DNA of 64,000 bases from Pseudomonadota bacterium (GTDB taxonomy: Bacteria; Pseudomonadota; Gammaproteobacteria; Xanthomonadales; Xanthomonadaceae): positions 56,854 to 120,853 of the forward strand of contig JAUMYP010000002.1 of NCBI GenBank assembly GCA_030528565.1. Direction: 5' to 3'. Below are positions 8,282 to 60,059 of this stretch, piece by piece (positions within the stretch are counted from its first letter, which is position 1; the number at the start of each line of letters is the position of its first letter). Below the pieces are notes generated by a model. It saw only the letters and a list, made by a program, of their open reading frames with translations, was not told the DNA's origin and ran no database searches. Made by a program: the position numbers and the translations under genes.

Positions 8282-9772
8282 TCAACGCATGGTATGGCTC
8301 AGCACCCAGAACAGTCCGCCCGAAAGCAGTGCCGATACCGGCACGGTAATCACCCAGGCTGCGGCTACGGTAACGAAGTGCGAGCGCCGTACCAGTTTGC
8401 GGCGGGCGCGTTCTTCCGGCGCCAGCGGCTTGCCCTTGCGGATGCCAAGCTCGCGGGCGCGGCGTTCGGCATGCCATTCGCGGAAGAAGCCGACGCCGAA
8501 AATCGCGCCCACGGCGATATGCGTGGAGCTGACCGGCAGTCCCAGCCAGGAAGCCAGAATCACCGTCACCGCTGCCGAGAGCGATACGCAATAGGCGCGC
8601 ATCGGGTTGAGTTTGGTGATTTGGCTGCCCACCAGGCGAATCAGCCGCGGGCCAAACAGCAGCAGGCCAAAGCTGATGCCGAGTGCGCCAATGGCCATCA
8701 CCCACAGCGGAATGCCGACCTGGCCTTGCACACTCCCGGCCTGTACGGCGTGCACAATCGCTGCCAGCGGGCCGACCGCATTGGCCACATCATTGGCGCC
8801 ATGCGCAAAGGAGAGCAGTGCCGCCGAGCACACCAGCGGGATACCGAACAGTTTGCGGATGGATTTTTTGCGGTTTTCCAGCCCCTCGGACTGACGCCTG
8901 ACCATTGGCACCGATGCCAGCCAGACCAGCACCCCGGTAACCAGACCAATCAGCAGCGACATCTGCAAGCCAATCTTGACCACCTTGGACAAGCCCTTCA
9001 GCGCCAGATAGGCACCAAAAGCGCCGGCCATGAGGCCAATCAATACCGGCACCCAGCGCCGGGCGGCGCTTATCTTGTCCTGCCGGTAAAGAATCCGTGT
9101 CTTGATGAAGGCCAGAAACACGGCGGCAATCAGGCCGCCAAGAACCGGCGAAATCACCCAGCTTGCCGCGATTTTGCCCAGCACTGACCACTTCACCGAG
9201 CTCATCCCGGCCGCCACCACTCCGGCACCGACCACGCCGCCGACAATCGAATGGGTGGTGGACACCGGCGCGCCAATCACCGTTGCCAGATTCAGCCACA
9301 GGGCGGCGGCCAGCAATGCGGCCAGCATCGCCAGCACAAAGGTGCGGCCATCGCTGACCGCATCCGGGGCGATGATGCCCGAGGCGATGGTATTGACCAC
9401 ATCGCCACCGGCAATCAGTGCGCCTGCGGTTTCAAAAATCGCGGCAATGATGAGCGCGCTGCCCAGCGTCAGCGCATTGGCGCCCACCGCCGGCCCCATA
9501 TTGTTGGCCACATCATTGGCACCGATATTGAGCGCCATATAGGCACCAATCACGGTGGCGGCGACCACCACGAAGGTGCCGGGCTGCACGCCGATAAAGG
9601 CCAGCGAGGCGGCGGCCACCAGCACCACGAAAGCAATGGCGATGCCCGGCGCAATCAGCGGTCTGGCAACAAAGGTGGTGGCGCGCTCCAGCAGGCCGAT
9701 ACGCCCCAGGTCCTTGTCGAGCGTTCTCCAGCGGGTGGGCGTACGGGCGTTGGGGTCGTTAGGCGATGACAT
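8282..9772 (-). CDS. pitA: inorganic phosphate transporter, PiT family
   Basis: Repeated GANDVAN motifs and multiple TM helices; 496 aa. Confidence 0.9.
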   Translation of the reverse strand: MSSPNDPNARTPTRWRTLDKDLGRIGLLERATTFVARPLIAPGIAIAFVVLVAAASLAFIGVQPGTFVVVAATVIGAYMALNIGANDVANNMGPAVGANALTLGSALIIAAIFETAGALIAGGDVVNTIASGIIAPDAVSDGRTFVLAMLAALLAAALWLNLATVIGAPVSTTHSIVGGVVGAGVVAAGMSSVKWSVLGKIAASWVISPVLGGLIAAVFLAFIKTRILYRQDKISAARRWVPVLIGLMAGAFGAYLALKGLSKVVKIGLQMSLLIGLVTGVLVWLASVPMVRRQSEGLENRKKSIRKLFGIPLVCSAALLSFAHGANDVANAVGPLAAIVHAVQAGSVQGQVGIPLWVMAIGALGISFGLLLFGPRLIRLVGSQITKLNPMRAYCVSLSAAVTVILASWLGLPVSSTHIAVGAIFGVGFFREWHAERRARELGIRKGKPLAPEERARRKLVRRSHFVTVAAAWVITVPVSALLSGGLFWVLSHTMR

Positions 9773-9830
9773 AAGCCAATTTTGTCATTACTTCGGCAGT
9801 TTGCGCTTGATTTTTGGCAAGCGCCGCGCA

Positions 9831-10295
9831 TCAGTGCGCAGGTTTGTCCAGGCTGCGCAGGATTTGCGCCAGCTCCGGCTCTTCCACTTCGGCAGCCGCC
9901 TCCTGCAACGGCCACCAGCGGCGCTCGCGCTGGCCGACCTCGGGATAGTCATCGGCCAGCTCGATTTCATCCATCTGAAACACCACCACTTCCACCGGCT
10001 GGGCAAAATCCTCGACCAGCACACTGGCATAGTGATAGCGGCCAAGCGGCTCGGGGCGCACCCGGCCACGCGCACCGGCCTCCTCCCAGGCTTCCTGCTG
10101 TACCGAGCCAGGCAGGTCACTGCCAGCCATCGGCCAGCCCTTGGGCAGAATCCAGCGTCCCCGGCGCTTGCTGGTAATCAGCAGCACTTCGCGGCGAGCC
10201 TCATGAACGCGCAGGCACAGAGCCGCCACTTGCAGGCGTTCTGGCCGCAGGCCAAGCAAATCCAGCAGCAGGCGTTTTAATCCCATTTTGCTCAT
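9831..10295 (-). CDS. NUDIX hydrolase
   Basis: Start MSKMGLKRLL. Nudix-box-like GSDLPGSVQQEAWEEAGARG. Confidence 0.6.
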   Translation of the reverse strand: MSKMGLKRLLLDLLGLRPERLQVAALCLRVHEARREVLLITSKRRGRWILPKGWPMAGSDLPGSVQQEAWEEAGARGRVRPEPLGRYHYASVLVEDFAQPVEVVVFQMDEIELADDYPEVGQRERRWWPLQEAAAEVEEPELAQILRSLDKPAH

Positions 10296-10316
10296 CCCTA
10301 AATCTTGTCTGCCATG

Positions 10317-10345
10317 GCGCCCGTACACCGCAGATGTACGGGCGC
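10317..10345 (-). terminator. 11-bp perfect stem-loop immediately downstream of ftsZ (no U-tract)
   Basis: gcgcccgtaca/tgtacgggcgc with a 7-nt loop between the ftsZ stop and the NUDIX start. Confidence 0.3.
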
Positions 10346-10356
10346 TGGCCTGTGCA

Positions 10357-11625
10357 TCAATCGGCCTGGCGACGCAGGAAGGCCGGGATGTCGAGGTAAT
10401 CCGCCCCGCCAAAATCCGCAGCCTTGGGTGCGGCCTCTGCTGCCGGGGCGCTGTTGCCCGGCGCGGCAGCGCGACGCAACCCCGAGGCCAGACCCTGTGC
10501 CGGATTGAAGCCGACGGCAGATACTTCATCAATCGGCAAGCCGGTAGTGCCATCGCGCTTGGCTACGCCCACATCCGGCACGATTTCCATTTGCGGCTTG
10601 GCGCGGCGCACCGGCTCGAAACCGCCACCGAAATCATTGCGCACCGAAGCACGCTGCTGGGCAGCCCGGTTGAGGCCGGTCGCCACCACGGTGACCTTGA
10701 TTTCGTCCTTCATTTCCGGGTCGAGCGAGGTACCGATGATGACCGTGGCATCTTCTGCGGCAAATTCGTCCACCGCACGGCCGATTTCTTCAAATTCGGC
10801 CATGGTGATATCCGAACCTGCAGTGATGTTGACCAGGATGCCATTGGCGCCATGCAGATTGACATCATCCAGCAGCGGGTTCTGGATGGCCATTTCCACG
10901 GCGGCCTGGGCGCGGTCATCACCGCGGGCAATGCCGGTGCCCATCATCGCCAACCCCATTTCGTTCATCACCGTTTTGACATCGGCAAAGTCCACGTTCA
11001 TTTCACCCGGACGCACGATGAGGTCGGCAATGCCCTGCACTGCGCCATGCAGCACGTTGTTGGCTTCGCGGAAGGCCTGCACCATGGTGGCATTGCGCCC
11101 CAGCACGGTCAGCAGTTTTTCGTTGGGGATGGTGATGAGCGAGTCCACATGCTGCGCCAGCTCTTCAATACCCTTCAGCGCTACCTGCATGCGGCGACGG
11201 CCTTCAAACGGGAACGGCTTGGTCACCACCGCCACGGTAAGGATGCCCATTTCCTTGGCAAGCTGCGCCACCACCGGCGCTGCGCCGGTGCCGGTGCCGC
11301 CGCCCATGCCCGCGGTGATGAACACCATGTCTGCGCCCTGCAGGGCATCCATGATGCGTTCGCGGTCTTCCAGCGCGGCCTGACGGCCGACTTCCGGATT
11401 GGCACCTGCGCCAAGCCCCTTGGTGACATTGCTACCCAATTGCAGCTGCAACTGGGTGCCGGAGCTGCCCAGTGCCTGCGCATCGGTATTGGCAGTAATC
11501 AGCTCAACACCCTGCAATTGGCTGGCCACCATATGCGCCACGGTATTGCCGCCGCCGCCGCCCACGCCAATCACCTTGATGACGGCATTGGGTGCCATTT
11601 TTTCCATCAGTTCAAAACTTGCCAT
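10357..11625 (-). CDS. ftsZ: cell division GTPase FtsZ
   Basis: [27 protein letters not shown] and the tubulin signature. The real start is at 11625; the track ORF extends upstream artefactually. Confidence 0.97.
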
Positions 11626-11834: not shown

Positions 11835-13073
11835 TCAAAACTGGCCGCTGTACCAATCCTTCAATTTCTTGATGAAACCCAGGCTGCGCCCGGAAGGCAG
11901 CAGGCTGCGCGCTCTTGGCGCATCCATCCGGCTGCCCATCAGCAATAGCCCGACACCACTGGCATGCACCGGGTTGCCGACCACTTCGGCAAGACCGGCC
12001 ACATGCTGCGGAATGCCGATACGCACCGGCATTTGCAGCATTTCTTCAGCCAACTCGACCACGCCTTCCATCTTGGCGCCGCCGCCGGTCAGCACCATCC
12101 CGGCGCGTACCAGTTCTTCAAAGCCGGAACGGCGCAGCTCGGCCTGCACCATCTCGAAAATTTCTTCGTAACGCCCCTGCACCGCCTGCGCCAGCGCATG
12201 ACGCGGCAAGCGCCGTGGCGGACGGTCACCGACGCTGGGCACCTGGATGGACTCCTCAGCCGTGGCCAGCTGCGCCAGTGCACAGGCATAGCGCACCTTG
12301 ATTTGCTCGGCCTCCGGGGTCGGCGTGCGCAGCATATGGGCGATATCGCTGGTGACATGGTCGCCGGCAATCGGCAGCGAGGCGGTATGCGCAATCGCGC
12401 CCTGCACGAATACGGCGATATCGGTGGTGCCCGCGCCAATATCCACCAGCACCACGCCCAGCTCGCGCTCGTCATCGGTCAATACCGCTTCGCTGGAAGC
12501 CAGCGCCGAGAGAATCAGCTCATCCACCGCCAGGCCGCAACGCTGCACGCATTTGCTGATATTGGTGGCCGCCGACTGCGCACAGGTGACCAGATGGGCA
12601 TGCACTTCCAGACGGATGCCACTCATGCCGACCGGGTTCTTGATGCCCTCCTGCGAGCTGTCCAGCACGTATTCGCGGGCGATGGCATGCAGGATGCGCT
12701 GGTCGGAAGGAATCGCCACCGCCTTGGCCGCTTCCAGTGCGCGCGCCATGTCGCCATGCGTGACTTCGCCATCACGCAGCGGCTCCATGCCTTGCGAATT
12801 GCGGCATTGCACATGATTGCCGCTGATTGAGGCATGCACCGAACGAATCTCGCAACCAGCCATCAGCTCGGCTTCTTCCACCGCACGCTGGATGGACTGC
12901 ACGGTGGAGTCGATATCCACCACCACGCCGCGGCGCAGGCCGCGCGATTCATGGCTGCCCACGCCAATCACTTCAATCGGCAAGCCGGGGGTGTATTCGC
13001 CCACCAGCGCCGTCACCTTGGAAGTGCCGATATCAAGGCCAACGATGAGGGTTTTATCGCCTTTGCGGTTCAT
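11835..13073 (-). CDS. ftsA: cell division protein FtsA
   Basis: [20 protein letters not shown]..., actin-like ATPase. Confidence 0.95.
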
Positions 13074-13864
13074 GTTGCAGCACCCGGAAAAACATGAGGG
13101 GGGACAGGGGCAGGGCTGTTGCCTGCGGTTTTCGGAAAATCGCCCCAGCGCAGCGCGAAGCCATTGGCATAGCGCAGGTCTGCGCGCTGCAAGGTTTTGC
13201 CGGGCGGGGCAATCAGTTGCGGCAGCAAATGCGCAAAACGGCGGATACGCGGCTCGGCGTCATGGCGGCCGACAATCACCTCAAGGCCGCTGTCGAAATG
13301 AATCGACCAGCTACCACGGGCATCCAGCCGCAGGCCGGTGACATCCAGCCCTGCGGCGGCAAACAGCGCACGCGACTGGTTGTAGAGTGCGACCACCTCG
13401 CCCACCCGGTGGCGGTCGCCGCCCAGCTGCGGCAGCCCTTCGGGCAGGGCATCGCCCATCACTTCGCGCGGATACAGATTGCCGCGCTCGGACAGCAGCC
13501 AGTCTTCATCCCATTTTGCAAACGGCCGGTGCTCGACAATTTTCACTTGCAGCACATCCGGCCATTGCTTGCTGATTTCAGCCTGCTCCACCCACGGCAG
13601 CCGTTCCACGGCCTGTTGTGCGTCTTGCAGGCGCACGGCAAAAAAACCCTGCGCCGCATAGGGCTTGAGCGTCTGCTGCAACTGCGCCGCATCGACATGG
13701 CGGAACTCGCTGGTGACCTGCAACCGGGTCAGCGCAAACCGCTTGGCGCCCAGCCAGCCCTGCATCACCGCCACCAGCGGCAGCGCAATCACGGCGATGG
13801 CAAGCACGATGCCGAAGATACGGGTCAGGGCGCGCATAGTGTCTGCTCCAGAATCCGCCAGCAC
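13070..13864 (-). CDS. ftsQ: cell division protein FtsQ
   Basis: Single N-terminal TM helix plus POTRA/FtsQ domain. The start is at 13864 or 13837. Confidence 0.85.
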
Positions 13865-14775
13865 AGCTCATCGAACTCAACGCCAATGGCGCGCGCGGCC
13901 TTGGGCACCAGCGAAGTCGCGGTCATGCCCGGCGCGGTATTGATTTCAATCAGCTGCCAGCCGCGCTGCTTGTCGCGCATCACATCCACCCGGCCATAGC
14001 CGGTGCAGGCGGCGCTCCTGAAAGCCTGCAATACCAGCTGCCCCAGCGCGGCTTCTTCTTCGCCCTGCAACCCCGGCGTGATATAGCGGGTGGTATTGGA
14101 CTGGTATTTGGCCTTGTAGTCATACCACTGGCCTTCGGGCACGATATGGATGGACGGCAGGGCGATATCGCCCAGCACCGGCACCGAGAATTCCTCGCCC
14201 TCCACCATCTGCTCCATCAGCATTTCGCCGCCGTATGCGGCTGCGACCTCACAGGCATGCTCAAGGTCGGCCTCGCTCATGACCCGCGCCACGCCGACGC
14301 TGGAGCCTTCGCTGGAAGGCTTCAGGAATACCGGCAGCCCCAGTGCTTTTGCCGCTGCACGCACATCGCCACCGGGGGCGATGCGCAGATAGCGCGGCGT
14401 GGGCAAGCCTTCGGCAATCCATACCTGCTTGGTGCGGATTTTGTCCAGCGTCAGCGCCGCGCCGAGCACGCCGGTGCCGGTGCAAGGAATGTCCAGCGCA
14501 GCCAGCAAACCCTGCACCACGCCGTTTTCGCCATCACCGCCATGCAGGATATTGAAAACGCGGTCCACCCGGCCACCGGCAATGGCCTGCACCAGCGCCT
14601 TGACGCCATCGACCGCGAATGCATCCACCCCGCGCGACTGCAGTGCGGCCAGCACCGCCGCACCGGATTTGAGCGAGACTTCGCGCTCGCTGCTTTCGCC
14701 GCCCAGGAGCACCGCGACACGACCAAAGCCTTTCGCATCGGTGAGCTGCATGGCGGGCAGTTGCATCTGGCTCAT
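13825..14775 (-). CDS. ddl: D-alanine--D-alanine ligase
   Basis: [19 protein letters not shown]... ATP-grasp. Confidence 0.93.
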
Positions 14776-16229
14776 GCTGCACCTCCTGCATTTGCAAGCC
14801 CCGTAGCCGCCAATTGCTGCGCCAGCGCGCCGATATCGCCTGCCCCCATCACCAGCAACAAGTCGCCATCGCGCAGCACATCGGGCAGCACCTCCATCAG
14901 CTCGGCAGCACTGTTCACGACCACCGGGTCGATACGGCCACGGGTACGGATGGCGCGCGCCAGCGACTTGCCATCGGCACCGGCAATCGGCGCTTCGCCT
15001 GCCGGATAGACTTCCGTCAGCAGCAGCGCATCGACGCTGGAGAGCACTGCGGCAAAGTCATCGAACTGGTCACGGGTACGGCTGTAGCGGTGCGGCTGGA
15101 ACGCCACCACCAGACGGCGTTCCGGCCAGCCGCCGCGGGCGGCCTTGAATACCGCATCCAGTTCCACCGGATGATGGCCGTAGTCATCCACCAGCATGGC
15201 GCTGCCGCCGCCTGGCAGGCTGAGTTCCGCCAACTGGTTGAAGCGCCGACCTATGCCCTTGAATTTTTCAAAGGCGACGGACATCTGCGCCGGGGCAATG
15301 CCCAACTGCCAGCCTATCGCTGCGGCAGCCAGCGCATTCTGCACATTGTGGCGGCCGGGCAAGGCCAGCGTCATCGGCGTTTGCGAGCCATCGGGCAAAT
15401 GCAGGTCGAACTGCATCTGCGCGCCCTGCTGGCGCACATTGTCGGCGCGCACTTCGGCATGCTCGGCAAAACCATAGGTCAGCACATGGCGCGGCGTGGC
15501 AGCGGCCAGCCCGGCGACTTCCGGGTCATCCAGGCACAGCACCGCCAGTCCATAGAACGGCAGCCGGTGCAGGAACTCATTGAACGCCTGCTGCACCTTG
15601 GCAAAATCGTTGTCGTAGTTTTCCAGATGGTCGGCATCAATATTGGTGACCACCGCAATCAGCGGATTGAGCCGCAGAAAACTGCCATCGCTCTCGTCGG
15701 CCTCGGCCACCAGCCATTGCCCATCGCCCAGCTTGGCATTGGCGCCTGCGGCCAGCAGTTGCCCGCCAATCACGAAGGTCGGGTCTTTGCCGCCCTCATG
15801 CAGCACGCTGGCGACCAGCGAAGTGGTGGTGGTCTTGCCGTGGGTGCCGGCGATGGCGATGCCGCGGCGGAAGCGCATCAGCTCGGCCAGCATTTCCGCA
15901 CGCGGCACTATCGGGATGCGCTGCGCGCGCGCCTCCATCAGCTCCGGGTTGTCCGGCTTGATGGCCGAGGACACCACCACGCAGTCGCTGCCCAGCACAT
16001 TGGCGGCACTGTGTTCGCGGTCGATGCGTGCGCCCAGCGCCTGCAGGCGGCGGGTGGCGGCATTGTCGGCGCGGTCGGAGCCGGACACCTGATAGCCCAG
16101 GGTGCACAGCACTTCGGCAATGCCACTCATGCCAACGCCGCCGATACCGACAAAATGCACGCGGCGGAAGGCTTTGGCCAAATCGCCCGGGTCTTGCAGG
16201 CGGCGTTGCTTGACAGTGCTCATCATCAC
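14772..16229 (-). CDS. murC: UDP-N-acetylmuramate--L-alanine ligase
   Basis: [18 protein letters not shown]... Mur ligase. Confidence 0.93.
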
Positions 16230-17299
16230 TTGGCCGCCTCCAGTACGGCTTCGGCCACTTGCGCGGCAGCATCGGGGCGGGCGAGCTGACGCGCTGCCTG
16301 CCCGGTGGAAAGCAATCGTTCGGGGTGCCCGGCAAAATGCGCCAGGTGCCGCGCCAGTTGCGCCGCCAGCGCATCGCCCTGTTTCACCATCAAGGCAGCC
16401 TGGCGCGATACCAGATACTCGGCATTGCGGGTCTGGTGGTCATCCACCGCCTGCGGGAACGGCACCAGGATGGCAGCCACCCCGGCGGCGCAGACCTCGG
16501 CCAGCGTCAAGGCACCGGCGCGGCAAATCACCAGGTCTGCCGCCTGCCAGGCGGCGGCCATATCGGCGATAAAGGCTTCCGGCTCGATATTCACACCGGC
16601 CCTGGCATAGGCGGCGCGGGTTTCCTCCAGCATCACCTCACCGCACTGATGGCGCACCTGCCAGACATCGCCCCTGCCGCTGGCGGCAAGCTCGGCCAGC
16701 GCCTGCGGCACGGCCTGATTGAGTGCCCGTGCGCCCTGGCTGCCGCCAATCACCAGCAGTTTGAACGGCGCATCAGGCACGCGCTGACGCGGCGGCAGGG
16801 CGGCGATTTCTTCACGCACCGGGTTGCCGACCACCATTTCACCGGCAAAGGTATCGGGAAAGCCGGTCATCACCCGGCTTGCCAGACGCGAGAGCACCCG
16901 GTTGGTCATCCCGGCGGCGCGGTTTTGTTCGTGCACCAGCAGCGGCACGCCCAGCAGTTTCGCCGCCAGCCCGCCCGGGCCTGCGGCATAGCCGCCAAAG
17001 CTCACCACCGCACGCGGGCGATGCGCCAGCAAAACCGCGCGCGCGGCCATCACCGCCGAGAGCAGCTTGAACGGCAGGCCGAGCAGTTTGCCCAAGCCCT
17101 TGCCGCGTACACCGCTGACCCGGATGGTGTCCATCGGGATGTCATGCACAGGCACCAGCCGGGTTTCCATGCCGCCTTCGGCCCCCAGCCAGCGCACCGG
17201 CACGCCACGGGCGCGCAACGCCCTGGCGACGGCAATACCGGGGAAAATATGCCCGCCAGTGCCACCGGCCAGAATCATCACCGGACGCATATCGCTCAT
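16226..17299 (-). CDS. murG: UDP-GlcNAc:undecaprenyl-PP-MurNAc-pentapeptide GlcNAc transferase
   Basis: [21 protein letters not shown]... Confidence 0.93.
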
Positions 17300-18708
17300 G
17301 GCTGCCCTCCATTGCCAAACGATGGCTCAATGCGCTGCCGCCGGGCTTCATGGCGCACTCCGGGCTGATGCAGCCAGCCGCCCAGGCGCTGCCACAGCGG
17401 TTTTCCGGGCAGGCGTTCATTGACCGGCTTGCGCGGCGTGCTGGCCGCCGGAGCCGCCGGAGCCGGCGCAGCGGCGGCTTCCGCAGCCACGACTGCCCGG
17501 CCTTGCTGGCTCATTTCCCGGTGCAGCGCCACCTGGCGCCTGGCGCGCTCCAGCTCCCAGGAGACGCGCAACAGCAGCCCCATCGCCGCAAAGGTCACCA
17601 AAATGCTGGAGCCGCCAAAAGAAACCAGCGGCAGGGTCAGCCCCTTGGTCGGCAACAGGCCGATGTTCACGCCAATGGAGATAAAGGTCTGCAAGGCCAT
17701 CCACATGCCGATGCCAAAACACAGATAGCCGGGGAAATAGCGGCGCATTTGCACGCATTGCAGCCCCAGCCACAATATCCGGCCCACCAGCAGCGCATAC
17801 AGGGCAATCAGTGCGCATACGCCGATAAAGCCGAATTCTTCGGCCAGCACCGCCATGATGAAGTCGGTATAGGCTTCGGGCAGGTAATTGAGCTTCTGCA
17901 CCGAGCCGCCCAGCCCTACCCCCCAAAGCTCGCCGCGACCCACCGCCATCAGCGCATTGGTAAGCTGATAGCCATCGCCGAACGGGTCTTCCCAGGGGTT
18001 AATCCACAGCCGGATACGCCTCATCCGGTAGGCTTCACGCGCCACGAACCAAATCAGCACCGGCATCAGCAATGCCACCGGCATAATCATGCGCGGCAGA
18101 TGTACCCCGCCAATCACCAGCATCAGCGCCGCCGTTGCCAGCAGCAGTGCCGTGGTGCCGAAGTCTTTCTGCACCTCAACCAAAATAATGGACAGCACTG
18201 CTACGGCACCAAATACCTTGAACATCGAGCGCCAGGAGCCTTTGACCTCATCGGAAAAACGCGACAGGTAGCTGGCCAACCAGATGGTGAAAATCAGCTT
18301 GACCGCTTCTGCGGGCTGGAAGTTGATGATGCCCAGATTCAGCCAGCGCCGTGCCCCTTTGGCCGAATGCCCCAGCCCCGGCACCCAGACCAGCAGCAGC
18401 AATAAAACGCCCACAGCCAGCAACAGGCGGCTGTATTTTTCCAGTTGGCGAATATCGCCGCGATACATCAGCACCAGCATCACGCCCATGCCCATCAGCA
18501 CCGACAGGATATGGCGATAGAAGTAATACATCGGCCCCAGCCCGCGCGCCTCGGCCATGGCGATGGAGCTTGAAGCCACCATGACCAGGCCGACTGAAGT
18601 CAGTACCAGCACGCACAGCAGCAGCCACTCGTCAAAGCGGCCGCTTACCGCATCCAGACGGACCGCCTGATGCTCAGTATGGATGCGCGGGGCGTAGCGT
18701 CCGTCCAT
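17296..18708 (-). CDS. ftsW: peptidoglycan glycosyltransferase FtsW with about 80-aa Ala/Pro/Arg-rich C-terminal extension
   Basis: SEDS-family core. 470 aa versus roughly 390-400 typical. The start ATG overlaps the mraY stop (ATGA). Confidence 0.9.
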
Positions 18709-19796
18709 CAGCGCACCTTCAGGGTGGCAAGGCCGATGAGCACCAGCACCACGGCGATAATCCAGAAACGCACGATGACGCGCGGCTCCGGCCAGCCCTT
18801 GAGCTCGAAATGGTGATGAATCGGCGCCATGCGGAACACGCGCTTGCCGGTGAGCTTGAAGCTCGCCACCTGAATCATCACCGACAGCGTTTCAATCACG
18901 AACAGCCCGCCCATGATGACCAGCACCAGCTCCTGGCGGACAATCACCGCCAGCGTGCCCAGCACCGCACCCAGCGCCAGCGCGCCGATATCGCCCATGA
19001 ACACCATCGCCGGATAGGTGTTGAACCACAGAAAACCAAGACCCGCACCGGCAATCGCCGCACAGATGATGAGCAGCTCACCGGCGCCCGGCACGGCCGG
19101 GATTTGCAGGTAGCGGGCAAATTCCGCATGCCCCGAGGCATAGGCAAACACGCCCAGCGCACAGGCGACCATCACCGTCGGCATGATGGCCAGGCCGTCC
19201 AGGCCATCGGTGAGATTGACCGCATTGGAAAAGCCGACAATCCAGAAATAAGCAATCGCCACGAAGCTGATGCCCGCCAGCGGCAGCGCCACCGACTTGA
19301 ACAGCGGCAGATAGAAGGTGGTCGCCGCCGGTACATCGGCATACAGGTACAGGTACAGCCCGGCGGCCAGCCCCAGCAGCGATTGCAGCGCGTACTTGGT
19401 ACGCGAACGCATGCCGTTGGGGTCGCGCTTGACGATTTTTATCCAGTCATCCCACCAGCCGATAGCGCCAAAGCCGACCATCACAGCCAGCACCACCCAT
19501 ACATATTTATTGCGCAAATCCGCCCACAGCAGCACCGAGGCGAGGATGGTGATGAGAATCAACGCCCCGCCCATGGTCGGCGTCCCGGCCTTGGAGAAAT
19601 GCGATTGCGGCCCATCGCTGCGAATCGGCTGGCCGCCGGATTTGAGCGAGGCCAGATAGCGGATGACTGTCGGCCCCCACCACAGCGACAGCAGCAAGGC
19701 GGTCAATGCCGAGAGAATGGCGCGGAAAGTCAGGTAATTGAACAGCCCAAACAGGCTTTGCAACTGTTCCAGCCAGCGGCTCAATTCAAGCAGCAT
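18708..19796 (-). CDS. mraY: phospho-N-acetylmuramoyl-pentapeptide transferase
   Basis: [31 protein letters not shown]..., 362 aa. The track ORF is extended upstream. Confidence 0.93.
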
Positions 19797-21150
19797 CGCT
19801 ATGTTCTCCTTGTAGCAGGGTGACCACGCGCTCCATCGCACTGCCGCGCGAACCCTTGACCAATACCCGCACCCCGGCCTGCAAGTCGCTTTGCAAGGCC
19901 GCGGCCAGTGCTTCATGGCTGGCGAACACTTGCGCGCCATCGCCAAAACTGTTTGCCGCCTCTGCGCTCAGCTCACCCAGCGCATACAGGCGCTTGATAC
20001 CGGCAGCGCGGGCGCGGCGACCGGCCTCGGCATGCAGCCGCGCAGCATCGGTGCCCAGCTCGCGCATATCGCCGAGCACCAGCCAGGCTTCATTGCCGGA
20101 AGCGGCCAGGGTGTCGATGGCCGCGCCGAGCGAGCCGGGATTGGCGTTATAGCTGTCATCAACCAGCCAGGCGCCACTGGCCAGGCGCTGCGCCACCAGC
20201 CGCCCGGCGACCGGCGCAACGCTTTCAAGCCCGGCCTTGATGGCTGCCAGCGATACCCCGGCGGCCAATGCCATGCTGGCCGCCGCCAGTGCATTGGCGA
20301 TATTGTGGCGGCCTGCCAGCGCCAGGCGGATATCGGCCTCGCCCTGCGGGCATAGCAGCCGGAACTGGCTGCCCTCGGCATCAGTACGGATATTGTCCGC
20401 ACGCACATCGGCGCTGGCCTCAAGGCCAAAACGCAACACTTTGTGGCTGCCCGCACGCGCGACAAAATATTCGGCAAAGGCATCATCGGCATTGATGACG
20501 GCGGTGCCGCCTGCGCGCAGGTCGTCATAGATGGCCGCCTTGGTATCGGCAATGCCCAGCAGGCTGCCCATGCGCTCCAGATGCGCCGGGGCGATGTTAT
20601 TGACCAGCGCCACATCAGGCGCGGCCACGGCGGTCAGCCAGGCGATATCGCCCGGCTGGCCTGCCCCCATTTCATACACCGCGTACTGGCTGTCCTCCGG
20701 CGTGCCAATCACGGTCAACGGCAAGCCTATTTCGTTATTCAGATTGCCCGGTGTGGCATGGGTGGCGCCCACTTGCTGCAAAATCGCCGCAAGCAGGGTT
20801 TTGACACTGGTCTTGCCATTGCTGCCGGTGATGGCAAAGGCTTTCAGGCGGCGCGCCCGGTGCAGGCCGCGGGCGATATCGGCCAGCGCCGCCTGCGTGT
20901 CGCTCACCACTACCTGCGGCAGCGGCAACGGCAGCTCGCGGCTGACCAGTGCCGCGCAGGCACCGGCGGCGGCGGCCTGTTGCAGATGGTCATGACCATC
21001 AAAGTTTGCGCCCTTGAGCGCCACAAACAGCACTTGACCCTGCGGCAGCTTGCGGCTGTCGGTGGCGATGGCATCCACTTGCAGCGCGGCATCGCCCACG
21101 ACACGGCCTTGGGTGAGTTCGGCAATTTGTGCCAGCGTCATCGGCTTCAT
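19786..21150 (-). CDS. murF: UDP-MurNAc-tripeptide--D-alanyl-D-alanine ligase
   Basis: Mur ligase; [12 protein letters not shown]... Confidence 0.9.
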
Positions 21151-22619
21151 GCCCGCCCCTCCAGCGCCGCGCGCGCTACTGCCAGGTCATCGAAGTCATG
21201 CTTGACGCCGCATACGTCCTGATAGGTTTCATGGCCCTTGCCGGCAATCAGCACGATGTCATCGGCGCCGGCCTCGGCAACCGCCCGGATAATCGCCTGG
21301 CGGCGGTCGCGCTCGACCACCACATTCTGCATGGAAGCAAAACCGGCCAGGATATCGGCAACGATGCCATCGCCGTCTTCACCGCGCGGATTGTCGTCAG
21401 TGACATACACGCGCTCTGACAAGCGTTCGGCAATCGCCGCCATCTGCGGGCGCTTGCCACGGTCGCGCTCGCCACCGCAGCCAAATACGCAAATCAGCCG
21501 CCCCTGCAAATGCGCGCGCAGCGACTGCAAGGCTTGCTCCAGCGGGTCGGGCTTGTGCGAATAATCCACCACCAGCAGCGGCAGGCGGCCATCGCCGCCC
21601 AGCCGGTTCATGCGTCCGGCCACGGGTGCCAGTTGCGGCAGCACGGCCAGGATTTCTTCAAAACTGCGCCCCTGGGCATGCAGCACGGCCGCCACCGAGA
21701 GCAGGTTGTCGATATTGAAACGCCCCAGCAGCGGCGATTGCACTGGCGCACTCTGCGCGCCAATCCGCAACTGGAACGCAATGCCGCGTGCATTCAGCGT
21801 AATACGGCTTGCCGCCACATCGGCCGCTGCCGCATTGGATGCGGAAATGCCGATAGTGCGCACCGCCTGCGGTAGCGACTGCAACAAGCGCGCGCCATAG
21901 GCATCGTCGATATTGATGACCGCCGCCTGCAGGCCTTCCCGCTGGAACAGCCGCGCCTTGGCCGCGCCATAGGCGTCCATATCACCGTGATAGTCCAGAT
22001 GGTCGCGGGTGAGATTGGTAAACACCGCGATGTCGTAATGCACGCCATCCACGCGCCCCTGGTCGAGCGCATGCGAGCTGACCTCCATCGTCACCGCCGT
22101 TGCACCGGCATCGCGCAAGTTCGCCAGCATCTGCTGCATCGGCAGCACCAGCGGCGTGGTAAAGCCGGTCGCCACTTCCTGACCATACAGGCCAGTGCCC
22201 AGCGTGCCGATGGTGCCGCAACGCTCGCCAAGCAGCTCCAGAGCCTGCGCCAGCATCTGCACCGTGGAGGTTTTGCCACTGGTGCCGGTGACCCCCACCA
22301 TCTTCATGGCATGCGAAGGCGCGCCGTGGAAGGCGTTGCCCATCTGCCCGAGGCGCGCACGCAGGCCAGGCACGGCGATGGCATCGGCAGGGGCGGGCAG
22401 TTCCGCAGGCGCAGGCGGCTCAAACAGCACCGCCGCCGCGCCGCGCTCGCGGGCCTGCTGCACAAAACCCAGGCCATGCGCGCCAAACCCGGCAATGGCG
22501 ATAAAGGCATCGCCCGGACGCACTTCGCGGCTGTCCATCACCAGCCCGGAAACGGCAAGACCTGCGGGAATCCCCGGCACATCCGGCAACAAATCGGCAA
22601 GCAACAGGGTGCGGCTCAT
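21147..22619 (-). CDS. murE: UDP-MurNAc-L-Ala-D-Glu--2,6-diaminopimelate ligase
   Basis: [14 protein letters not shown]...; DNPR motif. Confidence 0.9.
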
Positions 22620-24448
22620 AGCTGGCGCTCCAGGGGTTGTGGCAGCGGCATGGCGGCAGCTACCTGCGGGCCGGCCGCTTTTTGCTGGGCGGCAATCCAG
22701 CTTTCTATATCGTCCGGCGGCACATCCATCAGCCGCAGCGCGCCTTCCATCACATTGCGAAATACCGGCGCTGCCAACTGCCCCCCGTAATAGCCCTTGG
22801 CAGGGTCGGGGTCATCGACCGTCACCACCATCGCATAGCGCGGGTTTTCTACCGGTACCACACCGGCAAAAAACGCCACATAGCGGCGCAAATAGCCGCT
22901 TTTGCCAGCAGATTTGCGCGCCGTGCCGGTCTTGCCAGCCACGTGATAGCCCAAAATGGCCGCCTGGGTGGCGGTGCCGCCGGGCTGGGTCACGGTTTGC
23001 ATCATCTGCATCACATTGCGGGCGATGGCCGGGTCAAGCACCTGGCGACGCGCGCGCGCCTCGCCTTTGATAAAGGTCGGACGCACCGCCACGCCGTCAT
23101 TGGCCAGCGTGGCGTAGGCATGCACGATTTGCATCGGGGTGACGTTTAAAGCATAGCCATAGGACATGGTTTGCTTGCTGGTGCCATCCCAGCGCGCCGG
23201 TTCGCGCAAAAGGCCTGCCGCTTCGCCCGGGAAATTGATGCCGGTGCGCTGGCCATAGCCGAACTTGTGCAGGAAGTCATAGAACTGCTGGTTGCTTAGC
23301 TGGCGCGCAATCAGCGCCATGCCCACGTTCGAGCTTTTCTGGATAAGTCCGGTCGTGGTCAGCGTGCCGTAATTGCGGGTATCGGTAGTGCGAAAACCGC
23401 CATTGGCAATCCAGCCGGGGCTGACATTGAAAGTGGAATTGACGGAAATCACCCCGGCCTCAAGTCCTGCCGCCACAGTCAGGGGCTTGATGGTCGAGCC
23501 TGGCTCCAGCAAGTCGGTCAGGGCGCGGTTGCGGCGTGCCTCAACGCTGACCGTGGCGATATTGTTGGGGTTGTAGGAGGGCAGGTTGGCCATCGCCAGC
23601 ACTTCGCCACTGCGCACATCCAGCACCACCGCCGAGCCGCTGGCTGCGCCGCTTTTTTCCAGCATCGCCTTCAGCTCACGATAGGTCAGGTACTGGATAC
23701 GCCGGTCAATGGTCAGTGTCACGTCCTGGCCCGGCTGGGCTGCACGCAACAAATCCAGATGCTCGACAAAACGGCCATCCCTGTCGCGCAGCACCTGCCT
23801 CAGACCGGGCTTTCCGGCCAGTACATCATTGAAGGCCAGCTCGATACCTTCCTGTCCCTTGTCATCGACATTGGTAAAACCCAGGATGTGGGCAAAGGCT
23901 TCCCCCTGCGGATAGAAGCGGGCAAATGCAGGCTCCTTGCCAACACCGGGAATCCCCAGGGCAATAATCGCATCCGCCTGTGCCGGGCTGAGCGCCTTGC
24001 GGTGAATCCGGATACCTTCTTGGGCTCTTTTCTGGAAAATTCTCTCGCGCAGCCCGGCAACCGGAATATCCAAAGCCTGCGCCAGCTGCTCAAGCTGCCG
24101 TTCAGCCGCCTGGCGTTGCGCCAGTTTTTCCGATTCCAGTGCTGCCGCCCAGTAGCCCGGCTCCAGCTTGATGAAAACCACCGGACTGGATACGGCCAGC
24201 GGCTCGCCATTGCGGTCGGCGATCATGCCGCGCATGGCCGGAATCTGCACGGTACGCAGGCTGCGGCTGTCGCCTTGCATCTGATAGAAGTCCTGGTTGA
24301 CAAGCTGCACCCATTCGGCGCGCAGTACCAGGGCACTGATAAGGACAATCAGCCCAACCCCCGTTAACAGCACGCGCTGACGCACATCCAGTGACAGCCA
24401 GCCACTGATAACTTCGCCCATGGTGCGCTTGCGACGGCTCTGCTTCAT
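22616..24448 (-). CDS. ftsI: penicillin-binding protein 3 (peptidoglycan D,D-transpeptidase FtsI)
   Basis: STIKP active-site motif, KTGT motif, N-terminal TM. Confidence 0.92.
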
Positions 24449-24708
24449 GGCCGCACCAGCACGATTTCATGCGCCTGCGGCGCCACCATGCCAAGCCTCT
24501 CGCGCGCTGCCTTGTCAATCAGCGTACTTTCGGCATACGTCGCCTGCTCAAGCTGCAACTGCTTGAATTCCAGCTCCAGCCGGTCACGCAGGTTTTCGGC
24601 CTTGACGATTTCGGCAAACACCTGCCGGTGACGATGACGCGCTTCAACACGCATCACCGCGGTCGCGATACAGGCCAGCAACAAAACCAGCAGCAACAGG
24701 CGCATCAT
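24445..24708 (-). CDS. ftsL: cell division protein FtsL
   Basis: 87 aa, one TM helix plus coiled coil, positioned between rsmH and ftsI. Confidence 0.85.
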
Positions 24709-25655
24709 GGCTGCACCTGCGCAATCTTTTCTGCCACCCGCAACACGGCGCTGCGCGCGCGCGGATTGGCGCGATTTTCTGCATCATCGGCCCTGATGGC
24801 CGAACCCACCAGCTTCAGCGTGGGCGTAAATGCCTGCAATTGCGGGCGACGGCGGTCACCCGGCGGCGCTTTGGCCTTGCCTGCCATGAACTGCTTGACG
24901 ATGCGGTCTTCCAGCGAATGGAAGCTGATGACCACCAGCCTTCCTGCCGGGCGCAGGGCATCATGCGCGGCGGCAAGACCGGCTTCCAAGTCCTGTAGCT
25001 CGCGGTTGATGTGGATGCGAATGGCCTGGAAGCTGCGCGTGGCCGGATGGCTGCTGTCCTTGCCACGCGGCACATTGGCAGCGATGACTTCGGCCAAATC
25101 CAGCGTGCGCAGGAACGGCTGGCGCACACGGCGCGCGACGATGGCACGGGCGATACGGCGGCTCATGCGCTCCTCGCCATAACGCCACAGCACATCGGCG
25201 ATTTCCTGCTCGTCCGCCTCCGCCAGCCACTGGGCAGCAGTTTGCCCGGCATCCCGGTTCATGCGCATATCCAGGGGGCCATCCTTGTTAAACGAAAAAC
25301 CGCGCTCGGCCACATCCAGTTGCGGTGAAGACACCCCCAAATCCAGCAGCACGCCATCCAGGCCATCCCCCACCGCCTGCCATTGCCCCAGTTCGGCAAA
25401 GCTGCCGTGGTATATCTGCACGCGGGCGTCGGTGCCGAAGCGTGCCCTGGCGGTTTCGATGGCGGCCATATCCTTGTCCATCACCAGCAATTTGCCGGTA
25501 GCGCCCAGTTGCGCCAGCACACCGGCCGCATGGCCGCCACGACCAAACGTGCCGTCCAGATAAACGCCATCAGCCTTGATACACAGACCCGCCAGCACCG
25601 GCTGATACAGCACCGGCACATGCGCGGTCGGGGTATGGCTCGCCGTGCCCATCAC
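24705..25655 (-). CDS. rsmH: 16S rRNA (cytosine1402-N4)-methyltransferase RsmH (MraW)
   Basis: [10 protein letters not shown]...DGTFGRGGH... Confidence 0.93.
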
Positions 25656-26101
25656 AAGCTCAGCCCCTCCAGTGCATCGCTGTCCATATCCTCATCGGAC
25701 AGCGTCTGCGCAATCTGCGCGGCATGTGCGTCCTCACTCCACAACTCGAATTTCTCACCCATGCCAATCAGGATGGCGCGGCGCTCGATACCGACCGCAT
25801 TGCGATGGCTGGCGCTGATGCTGATACGGGCACTGCCATCCAGCACCTGCAAGCTTGCCGAGCCGACCAGTTTCAGCTGCAACTGCCGCGAAGACTTCTT
25901 GGCGCGCGGCAAGGCATTGACCTCATCACGCAATTTTTCCCATGCCGGCTGCGGATAGATATACAGCGAGCCGGATTCAAACGGGTTGTAAGTCACCACC
26001 AAATGGCCGCCACAGACCTGCTCAACCTGCTCACGGAAGCAGGTCGGGATGGTCAGTCGCCCCTTTTCATCAAGGGTGATGGCGGTTTCGCCTTGGAACA
26101 T
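25652..26101 (-). CDS. mraZ: division/cell wall cluster transcriptional regulator MraZ
   Basis: [19 protein letters not shown]..., two SpoVT-AbrB domains. Confidence 0.93.
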
Positions 26102-26780: not shown

Positions 26781-27617
26781 TTACTGCTGCCCGTAGAGCG
26801 CCTTGCGTGGTGCGCCACTCAGTTCTGCGGCAATCTTGGCCGCGCTTGAGGGCGGCAAATGCGCCAGCAGCGCACGATAGATGCGCAGGCCTTCGGCCAG
26901 CTGTCCCTCGGCGCTGTCCGCCGCGCCTTCCACCAGCACCACGAACTCGCCTTTTTGCTGGTTGGCATCGGCCTCCACCTGTGCCGTGATTTCGGCCAGG
27001 CTGCCATCCAGAACGGTTTCAAACAGTTTGGTCAACTCGCGCGCCACTGCCGCCTTGCGCTCGCCGCCGAATACTTCACCGGCATCGTGCAAGAACTCGC
27101 AAATGCGATGCGATGACTCATAAAAAATCATCGTCCGGCGCTCGCCTGCCAGCGCCTGCAAACGCTCGCGCCTGGCTCCCGCCTTGGCAGGCAAAAAGCC
27201 TTCAAACACGAAGCGGTCACTGGGCAGCCCCGCCACTGACAGCGCAGCAATCAGGGCCGAAGCCCCCGGCACCGGGCTGACCCGCACCCCGGCCTTGCGC
27301 GCGGCCTGCACCAGCCGGAAGCCCGGGTCACTCACCAGGGGCGTACCGGCATCGGAAATCAGGGCCAGCGATTCGCCAGCCAAGAGCCGCGCCACCAGCT
27401 TTTCCGCCAGCGCCGCCTCGTTATGCTCATGCAATGCCAGCAATGGCGTATCAATGCCAAACTGTTGCAGCAGGGGGCGGCTATGCCGCGTGTCCTCGGC
27501 ACAAATCGCTGCCACCATGCGCAAAGTCTCCACCGCGCGCGGGCTGAAATCGCCGGTATTGCCAATCGGGGTGGCTACCACATACAGGCTGGCAGGTGAA
27601 GCAGATACAGGCGGCAT
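26781..27617 (-). CDS. rsmI: 16S rRNA (cytidine1402-2'-O)-methyltransferase RsmI
   Basis: LYVVATPIGNTGDFSPRAVETL...AEDTRHS..., tetrapyrrole methylase fold. Confidence 0.93.
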   Translation of the reverse strand: MPPVSASPASLYVVATPIGNTGDFSPRAVETLRMVAAICAEDTRHSRPLLQQFGIDTPLLALHEHNEAALAEKLVARLLAGESLALISDAGTPLVSDPGFRLVQAARKAGVRVSPVPGASALIAALSVAGLPSDRFVFEGFLPAKAGARRERLQALAGERRTMIFYESSHRICEFLHDAGEVFGGERKAAVARELTKLFETVLDGSLAEITAQVEADANQQKGEFVVLVEGAADSAEGQLAEGLRIYRALLAHLPPSSAAKIAAELSGAPRKALYGQQ

Positions 27618-27679: not shown

Positions 27680-28999
27680 ATGCGCAACGCTCATTTCCGT
27701 GTGCTTTTGCTGGCAGGCTTGCTGGGACTGGCTGGCTGCGCCAGCACGCCGAGCATCACCCCGGTCAAGGCGCCGCCCACCCCCAGCGCCTTCACCCAGG
27801 CACACCAACTGGCACAGAGCGATGTGCGCGGCAATGCCGCACAAATCGAAGCCCTGCTGGCCACACTGGACGATGCCAGCCTTGCCCGTCATACCACCGC
27901 CCTGGCCGCCAATGACCCGCTGTATGCCCTGGCTGGCCGCGCCATGCTGCGCCGTGGCCTGACACCGCCGCACCCGTTCAACCGTGGCCCCGAGCTGGGT
28001 CAGCGCGCTGCGGCCGCTGCCGATGGCTACCGCCCCCCCAATGCACTGGCTGTGCTGCTGCCCCTGACCGGCGCCATGGCCAATGCCGCCAAGCCGGTAC
28101 GTGACGGGCTGATGGCCGCCTACCACGCCGAACGCCGCACCCGCCCGCCAGTGCGCTTCTACGACACCAGCGCCGGGGTGATGGCCGCCTACCAGCGCGC
28201 CGTGGCAGAGGGCGCCGATTATGTAGTCGGGCCATTGCAGCGCGGCGAAGTGGATACGCTGTTTGCCCAGGGCCAGCTGCCGGTGCCGGTCTTGGCGCTC
28301 AACCGCGGCGAGCGCGACACCCCGGAAAGCCATATCGCCTTCTCGCTGGCTCCCGAAGACGAAGGCATCGCCGCTGCCGAATGGCTGATTGCCCGCCAGG
28401 CCAGCCGCGCGGTGGTGATTTTGAATCCCGGCGATGACGCCCTGCGCCGCGCAGCCAATGCGTTTTCCGAGCGCCTGCACCAGCGCGGCGGGCAAGTTGT
28501 CGAAACCGTACGGCTGGGCAATGCCGCCAGCCATCTCAACATCGCCACAACTGCGCCGGTGGATGCGGTGTATTTCGCCATCCGCGGCGAGCAGGCCCGC
28601 AACCTGATGGCCGCCATCAACCAGCACCCGGCACTGGCACGGGCAGCGCGCATTGCTGCCGCACAAATCACCAGCGGCATGGGCAATGCCGAAGAAGCCA
28701 GCGCACTGGACGGCATCGTTTTCCCCGGCGAATCGCTGCAAACCCGCAGCATATCCGGCCTGCCCGGCAATCCCGGCGCCCTTACCCCGAGCGCACGTGG
28801 CGCCGCCGCCCGCCTGTTCGCCTTCGGCCATGATGCCTGGCTGATTACCGCCTACCCCGAACGCCTCAGCCATCCCCGTGAAGGCGGCCTGGGCGGGGCA
28901 ACCGGCGTATTGAAGCTGGACGGCTTCGGCAATATCACCCGCAGCCCGGACTGGTCGGTACTGCGCGGCGGCGTTGCCCTGCCCTACAGTGGCCGCTGA
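27680..28999 (+). CDS. lpoA: penicillin-binding protein activator LpoA family lipoprotein (YraM/LppC)
   Basis: Lipoprotein signal [10 protein letters not shown]. Conserved rsmI-divergent-lpoA-yraN synteny. 439 aa, shorter than E. coli LpoA. Confidence 0.65.
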
Positions 29000-33346: not shown

Positions 33347-33443
33347 ATGCACTTGCTCTTGAATCGGGTGCCGCAGATTAGCCAATCCACACGTTTTGGG
33401 CATATTTTCTCTACACTCAAGCGCCCTGCTCCATGCCCCGCCC

Positions 33444-34343
33444 ATGCTTTACTGGCTTGCCAAACTCATCGGCCTTTTGCCCCTGCCCGCATTGCGCTGG
33501 CTGGGCGGGCAGCTTGCCGCCTTCTGGCTGCGGGGCAACCGCCGCGAAAGCCGGGTGGCCTGGCGCAGCCTGGAGCTGGCTTTTCCGCATATGCCCGAGG
33601 CCGAACGCCGCGCCCTGCACCGGGCAGCCCTGCAAAGCACCGGCTGGCAAATGTTCGAAACCCTGCGCATCTGGACGCGCCCGGCAGCGGAAAACCTGCG
33701 CTTGCTGCGCGAAGGCGCCGGTATTGAGCTATTCGATGCGGCGCTCAGCAGCGGTCGCGGGGTGATTATCGCCGCCCCCCACCATGGCAACTGGGAGCTT
33801 CTGAACCAATGGCTGGCCTCCCGTACAGCACTTGCTATTTTGTACGCGCCGCCGGAATCGGCCAGGGTGGATGCATTCTTGCGCCGGGTACGCAAAGCAC
33901 AGGCGCAAGCGGGACGGGTGGAGCAAATCCGCGCCGAGGGCATCGGCATCCGGCAACTGTTCAAACGCCTGCAATCCGGCGGCGTGGTCGGCATCCTGCC
34001 CGACCAGCAGCCCAAGCAGGGCGAGGGTGTCTGGGCGCCATTTTTTTCCATGCCCGCCTCAACCATGACCCTGATTGGCCGCCTGGCCGAGCGCAGCGGC
34101 GCTCTCGTGCTATTTGCCTGGTGCGAGCGCGATGCCGATGGTTCGGGCTTTACCCTGCATATCGAGGCAGCCCCGGATGGCATCGCCTGCAAAGACCCAC
34201 AGGTTTCCGCCACGGCACTCAATGCCGGTATCGAGGCGCTGGTACGCCGCAACCCGGCGCAATATCAGTGGACTTACAAACGCTGGTCGCAGCAGCCCGA
34301 AGGCAGCGCACCCGGCAACCCCTATTGGCCAGATTGCTATTGA
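33444..34343 (+). CDS. lipid A biosynthesis lauroyl/myristoyl acyltransferase (LpxL/HtrB family)
   Basis: HHGNWE acyltransferase motif; about 300 aa. Confidence 0.8.
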
Positions 34344-59991: not shown

Positions 59992-60059
59992 TGCATGTTT
60001 TCCATATTCACAAAAAAACTTTGATTATAAGCACTCAAGCAACCCTACTCCAAGCGACA

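Follow-up and report, generated by a model that had tools for sequence, protein, structure and literature searches.

A dcw cluster devoid of murD in a Lysobacteraceae bacterium and its probable relationship to the MurD2/MurL pathway

The dcw cluster carried by a 64 kb window (the whole stretch of DNA that was analyzed) contains no murD gene. This raises the question of whether the gap is a fault of the assembly, a peculiarity of the strain, or a property of the lineage, and of how glutamate is incorporated into the peptidoglycan stem peptide of this organism.

Organization of the dcw cluster and of the mraY-ftsW junction

Gene identities were assigned to the open reading frames (ORFs) of the window with Pfam and NCBIfam profiles and, for the upstream genes, also with orthologues in related genomes. 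The cluster is located on the minus strand in the order mraZ-rsmH-ftsL-ftsI-murE-murF-mraY-ftsW-murG-murC-ddl-ftsQ-ftsA-ftsZ. The ORF identified as mraZ (25652..26101) displayed 84-96% identity with the genes located at the mraZ position in three strains designated NML, and its orthologues in Pseudoxanthomonas koreensis and Lysobacter pythonis matched the Pfam MraZ family. The rsmH (mraW) ORF (24705..25655) likewise had orthologues in the three NML strains, and those of P. koreensis and L. pythonis matched Methyltransf_5. Identification of ftsL (24445..24708) was based on orthologues, the P. koreensis and L. pythonis counterparts being recognized by Pfam FtsL. The ftsI gene, encoding PBP3 (22616..24448), was assigned from orthologues containing the PBP_dimer and Transpeptidase domains. 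The murE gene (21147..22619) is a Mur ligase paralogue orthologous to the gene present at the murE position in all loci, and murF (19786..21150) contains the Pfam domains Mur_ligase, Mur_ligase_M, and Mur_ligase_C. The mraY gene (18708..19796; 362 amino acids) starts with an ATG at 19796, overlaps the end of murF by 11 nucleotides, and was identified by Pfam Glycos_transf_4 and MraY_sig1 and by TIGR00445 (429 bits). All genes of this block, from mraZ to mraY, are on one strand in the same order as in the E. coli-type cluster.

The second block, from ftsW to ftsZ, is also present as in the E. coli-type order. FtsW (17296..18708; 470 amino acids) matched Pfam FTSW_RODA_SPOVE (1e-104) and TIGR02614 (397 bits for a cut-off of 337.5); the protein consists of a SEDS core (residues 26-385) followed by a tail of ca. 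85 residues rich in Ala, Pro, and Arg. The genes that follow are murG (16226..17299; Pfam Glyco_transf_28 and Glyco_tran_28_C), murC (14772..16229; Pfam Mur_ligase N, M, and C domains), ddl (13825..14775; Pfam Dala_Dala_lig_N and Dala_Dala_lig_C), ftsQ (13070..13864; Pfam POTRA_1 and FtsQ_DivIB_C), ftsA (11835..13073; Pfam FtsA and SHS2_FTSA), and ftsZ (10357..11625 for the start MASFELMEK; Pfam Tubulin and FtsZ_C). The description of the cluster as otherwise canonical in the first-pass annotation was thus confirmed, all remaining genes being present in the E. coli-type order apart from the position of lpxC after ftsZ. Upstream, the cluster is flanked by rsmI (26781..27617, minus strand; Pfam TP_methylase and RsmI_C), which is adjoined by a divergent lpoA-like (LppC) gene (27680-28999, plus strand; Pfam LppC). 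Both neighbors are also present in P. koreensis.

The interval between mraY and ftsW contains neither an ORF nor space for a gene. At the junction (18706..18710, minus strand), which reads GTGCGC-TGATG-GACGGA on the minus strand, the TGA codon of mraY (18710-18708) and the ATG codon of ftsW (18708-18706) share one base. The earlier claim that this position leaves no room for murD therefore stands, although the overlap is a one-base TGATG rather than the four-base ATGA originally reported at 18706-18710. A genuine ATGA overlap is present at the ftsW/murG junction (17296-17299).

The absence of murD from the cluster was verified with profiles and tblastn across the 64 kb window. The E. coli MurD probe, validated by a full-length match of 979 bits with the MurD protein of the PDB, matched solely the paralogues murC, murE, and murF in the window. 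As a positive control, the same probe located the murD genes of Mannheimia and Thaumasiovibrio (55-59% identity), which lie between mraY and ftsW. When MurC, MurE, MurF, and E. coli MurD were used as tblastn queries, no fourth Mur ligase was found in the window. Searches of the window with Xanthomonas oryzae MurD2 gave only cross-matches with paralogues, as did those with X. oryzae MurL, LysCA, DLH, and IspB. The proposal that the function of murD must be encoded elsewhere is supported, the window containing no MurD-like gene.

In E. coli, lpxC follows ftsZ. In the window, ftsZ is followed by a gene encoding a NUDIX hydrolase (9831-10286, minus strand; 151 amino acids; Pfam NUDIX), which occupies the lpxC position of other Lysobacteraceae, and then by a gene for a phosphate transporter of the PHO4 family (8282-9772, minus strand; Pfam PHO4, 3e-110), in agreement with what had been noted from the sequence. 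These two genes are conserved after ftsZ in the three NML strains and in a Logan contig encoding an FtsW with 67% identity, and no LpxC homologue was found in the 64 kb window or in the loci of the three NML strains. In contrast, P. koreensis and L. pythonis carry lpxC-dciA-M23 peptidase-secA downstream of ftsZ. The displacement of lpxC from ftsZ is a genuine local rearrangement in the NML subclade. Since the window contains a gene for a lipid A acyltransferase (33396-34343), lipid A synthesis is presumably intact and lpxC presumably located elsewhere.

Taxonomic position and conservation of the murD-less order

The organism had been taken for a relative of Neisseriales, an assignment that does not hold, as the closest FtsW proteins are those of Lysobacteraceae. 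In a scan based on one genome per species, identity to FtsW was 95% for Lysobacteraceae bacterium NML95-0200 (NWQQ01), 83% for NML07-0707 (NWQT01), and 82% for NML03-0222 (NWQM01), and the top match outside the family was below 40%. A large protein database contributed L. pythonis (61%), followed by Luteimonas, Marilutibacter, and Pseudoxanthomonas; Lysobacteraceae was the sole family named among the best 120 FtsW homologues listed. The closest named species is L. pythonis, whose dcw proteins displayed 61-95% identity with those of the window. The GC content is 61% in the window and 61-63% in the NML subclade, which is poorly sampled. These protein comparisons identify the host as a Lysobacteraceae bacterium of the Xanthomonadales (Gammaproteobacteria; the order is now Lysobacterales, formerly Xanthomonadales).

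The mraY-ftsW order without murD was found in all of the seven related assemblies examined, which comprised the three NML strains, two Logan contigs, P. koreensis (complete chromosome CP169056), and L. pythonis (RFLY01000003). The TGATG junction is identical in the window, in a Logan assembly with 100% identity to it, in the three NML strains, in P. koreensis, and in L. pythonis; in the second Logan contig (FtsW 67%), the mraY and ftsW gene calls abut likewise. Identity to the MurF of the window ranged from 59 to 92% across these relatives, which represent different species and come from different projects. Thus, the murD-less order of the dcw cluster is normal in Lysobacteraceae, and it was already visible in public assemblies of this family. 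The first-pass annotation had considered the order as an unusual rearrangement and had itself named its being the norm of the clade as the observation that would refute this view; the order shared by all seven relatives is that observation.

The same data bear on the possibility that a segment containing murD was collapsed or lost during assembly at ca. 18.7 kb, as had been suspected. The junction is a clean in-frame overlap of stop and start codons, and neither GC content nor GC skew shows a break at this position. The identical junction is found in the independent Logan assembly, which is 100% identical to the window, and it recurs in six more assemblies that represent various species and projects, one of them a complete chromosome. 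The occurrence of the same junction in independent assemblies therefore excludes a collapsed assembly, and we regard an artefact of any kind at this site as extremely improbable.

The glutamate step of peptidoglycan synthesis

X. oryzae possesses neither a glutamate racemase nor a D-amino-acid aminotransferase (PMC8788868). In this species, L-Glu is added by MurD2 (XOO_1320) (Feng et al. 2017 JACS; reviewed in PMC8788868 and PMC5808125), and the terminal L-Glu is converted to D-Glu by MurL (XOO_1319), an ATP-dependent epimerase (PMC8788868; PMC5808125). Complementation of a D-Glu auxotroph requires XOO_1320 and XOO_1319 together (PMC8788868; PMC5808125). The combination of MurD2 and MurL without murI has been reported throughout the order (PMC8788868), and Lysobacter and Pseudoxanthomonas, the genera nearest to the organism of the window, are among the cases.

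Sequences and loci of this pathway were compared. The MurD2 protein of X. oryzae (P0121) has the residues E197, R358, P433, and F435, as published, E197 and R358 being the determinants of specificity for L-Glu. Another Xanthomonas MurD sequence, 96% identical to the database protein P0121, has the same four residues. The MurD2 signature was present in 126 of 151 sequences (the X. oryzae query and its 150 best representatives of clusters at 50% identity). The motifs of MurD2 are NDSISTT and PSFG, whereas the pattern used for metagenomes had been built on NDSKATN...PSFD; it retrieved six canonical MurD proteins, the longer contigs also carrying murE- or murF-like genes, but no MurD2. Among the best 120 homologues of X. 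oryzae MurD2 listed, only Xanthomonas and Stenotrophomonas were represented, and no solved MurD2 structure was found among the PDB matches to E. coli MurD. The relocated ligase is routinely mis-named D-glutamate ligase in databases.

The X. oryzae locus consists of a lysC/lysA fusion (869 amino acids), an ORF of 152 codons, murL, murD2, a gene of the DLH family, and ispB, the latter on the opposite strand. The murD2 gene overlaps murL by 20 nucleotides. The product of murL carries PF26299 and PF26298 and matched the NCBIfam equivalog NF041275 "MurL_Xanthmoales" with 827 bits. Lysobacteraceae bacterium SCN 69-123 shares this lysCA-murL-murD2-(DLH)-ispB layout, as do three Logan contigs retrieved via the cluster representatives P0241, P0242, and P0245; two of these contigs have a GC content of 53-55%, versus 61% for the window. 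The murL gene adjoins murD2 in all five contexts (X. oryzae, SCN 69-123, and the three Logan contigs), and the two enzymes also occur fused in a natural MurL-MurD2 protein (P0267). None of the five murL-murD2 loci contains dcw genes. Conversely, murD2, murL, and their conserved neighbors were found neither in the window nor within 10 kb of the dcw clusters of its relatives. Comparison of the window with the five murD2 neighborhoods by tblastx detected no shared synteny, only spurious low-bit matches, and therefore gave no hint of a murD2 gene located just outside the window.

Very probably, then, the window contains a normal Lysobacteraceae dcw cluster, and the glutamate step proceeds via separately encoded murL and murD2 genes located outside of it. 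The mraY gene is translationally coupled directly to ftsW through the TGATG overlap, as in the family members examined, and the second residue of the stem peptide would not come from a canonical D-Glu ligase that depends on a glutamate racemase. Instead, MurD2 would add L-Glu, and MurL would then epimerise the terminal L-Glu to D-Glu with ATP, the overlapping murL and murD2 genes being expected behind the lysC/lysA fusion, far from the dcw cluster. Since L. pythonis is the nearest named species and the pathway has been reported for its genus, we infer by phylogenetic bracketing that the genome of the window most probably contains murL and murD2 and lacks murI.

The main alternative is that a canonical murD has simply moved elsewhere in the genome, D-Glu being produced by an ordinary glutamate racemase without involvement of MurD2 and MurL. 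The window alone cannot separate a MurD from a MurD2 encoded elsewhere. Against this alternative, the Lysobacteraceae MurD-family proteins that were recovered all carry the MurD2 signature and are encoded next to murL, and the order-wide reports of MurD2 and MurL in the absence of murI include the nearest genera (PMC8788868). A relocated canonical murD is accordingly unlikely. The NML subclade might also have neither a canonical murD nor the murD2-murL pair and add D-Glu by an undescribed route, which we consider very unlikely. We know of no precedent for the addition of Glu by a MurC, MurE, or MurF of broadened specificity or by an unrelated ligase. Such a solution, which would dispense with any enzyme of the MurD family, is disfavored by the ordinary lengths and domain structures of MurC, MurE, and MurF, by their identity to the L. 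pythonis enzymes (87%, 72%, and 65%, respectively), and by the report of MurD2 and MurL in the genus of L. pythonis (PMC8788868); the chance that it applies is slight in the extreme.

A weaker version of this speculation on the NML subclade is that murD might have left the dcw cluster and been captured behind lysC/lysA, together with murL, in a single ancient event. If true, this event would characterize a family much broader than the small number of published genera, given the signature found in 126 of the 151 sequences.

Significance and comparison with known systems

The mechanism behind the empty slot has been in the literature since 2017 and is covered by curated NCBIfam and Pfam families. 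No open-access text was found in which the absence of murD from the Xanthomonadales dcw cluster is connected with MurD2 and MurL; on murD and the dcw cluster in Xanthomonas, Xylella, or Xanthomonadales, and on the genomic neighbors of XOO_1319 and XOO_1320, the literature searched yielded only the two reviews. The connection between the two is our own synthesis, which is small and does not amount to a discovery. The observation has little weight as a discovery, and its value is that of a lesson for annotation: in this order, a dcw cluster whose murD slot is empty points to an alternative, pathogen-restricted peptidoglycan pathway. The MurD2/MurL pathway has been put forward as a target for narrow-spectrum drugs.

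The MurD2/MurL system of X. oryzae belongs to the same bacterial family as the organism of the window, but the papers on MurD2 and MurL are concerned with the enzymes rather than with the vacant murD position of the dcw cluster. The clusters of P. koreensis and L. pythonis are identical in order to that of the window, from rsmI and mraZ to ftsZ, with the TGATG junction and without murD. In the E. coli-type clusters of Mannheimia cairinae and Thaumasiovibrio occultus, murD is located between mraY and ftsW, whereas it is absent from this position in the window; all other genes of the E. coli-type cluster are common to the window and are arranged in the same order.

Breadth of the MurD2-type family and candidate fusions

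The MurD2-type family was assessed by comparing 151 sequences, consisting of MurD2 from X. oryzae, the L-Glu-adding ligase, and the 150 representatives of 50%-identity clusters that matched it best. Glu and Arg were present at both specificity positions in 126 of these sequences. At the site of the DSKAT motif of canonical MurD, most of 70 aligned sequences among the 151 displayed DSI[SA]T. This site corresponds to K319 of the E. coli enzyme, the K319T mutant of which accepts L-Glu. Judging from the sequences, the MurD2-type family looks far wider than the few genera for which MurD2 and MurL, the ATP-dependent epimerase, are listed in a review (PMC8788868). The database names of the X. oryzae MurD2 homologues (P0121 to P0240) look like a systematic mis-annotation of an L-Glu ligase.

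Three of the representatives, P0267 (893 aa), P0289 (889 aa), and P0384 (856 aa), look like putative natural MurL-MurD2 fusions, the comparison with MurL covering P0267. The N-terminal 444 residues of this protein aligned without gaps to X. oryzae MurL (40% identity), and its C-terminal half was a MurD2-type ligase. The MurL half of P0267 had no match in the local Pfam copy.

The lysC/lysA gene beside murL-murD2

A lysC/lysA fusion gene, encoding a protein of about 865 aa that combines aspartokinase and diaminopimelate decarboxylase, was located upstream from murL-murD2 in all five contexts (L028 to L032). It directly adjoined murL in four of them, and a 152-aa ORF separated the two genes in X. 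oryzae (L028). The lysC/lysA-murL-murD2 arrangement suggests an operon joining the lysine/DAP branch to stem-peptide synthesis.

FtsW and murD-less junctions

Past the SEDS core, FtsW of the window is extended at its C terminus by about 85 aa rich in Ala, Pro, and Arg (residues about 386–470; positions 17296–17553). FtsW of the relatives was likewise long (430–485 aa). Among the NML strains, it was the least conserved of the dcw proteins, with 83% identity versus 98% for MraY. Direct succession of mraY and ftsW was also observed in four loci from unrelated phyla (L007, L013, L014, and L018; hosts Lawsonibacter, Saccharibacteria, and an unclassified gut MAG), with no MurD match in the fetched stretches. 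Thus, the murD-less junction is not confined to Lysobacterales.

Other regions of the window

Positions 60001–62000 displayed a GC content of 46%, versus about 62% elsewhere, and a strongly negative GC skew. This stretch is overlapped by a minus-strand gene (60060–62330), probably a polysaccharide gene gained horizontally, whose 756-aa product contains two glycosyltransferase domains of family 2. Genes for a WbsX/RgpF glycosyltransferase, ManC, and CysNC were found close to it.

The lpxC gene was not found in the entire 64 kb window or in the flanks of the relatives. Downstream from ftsZ, the window (ftsZ and these genes at 8282–11625), the three NML strains (L002 to L004), and the Logan contig relative (L033) harbored NUDIX and PHO4 genes, in contrast to Pseudoxanthomonas and L. 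pythonis, in which ftsZ is followed by lpxC-dciA-M23-secA.
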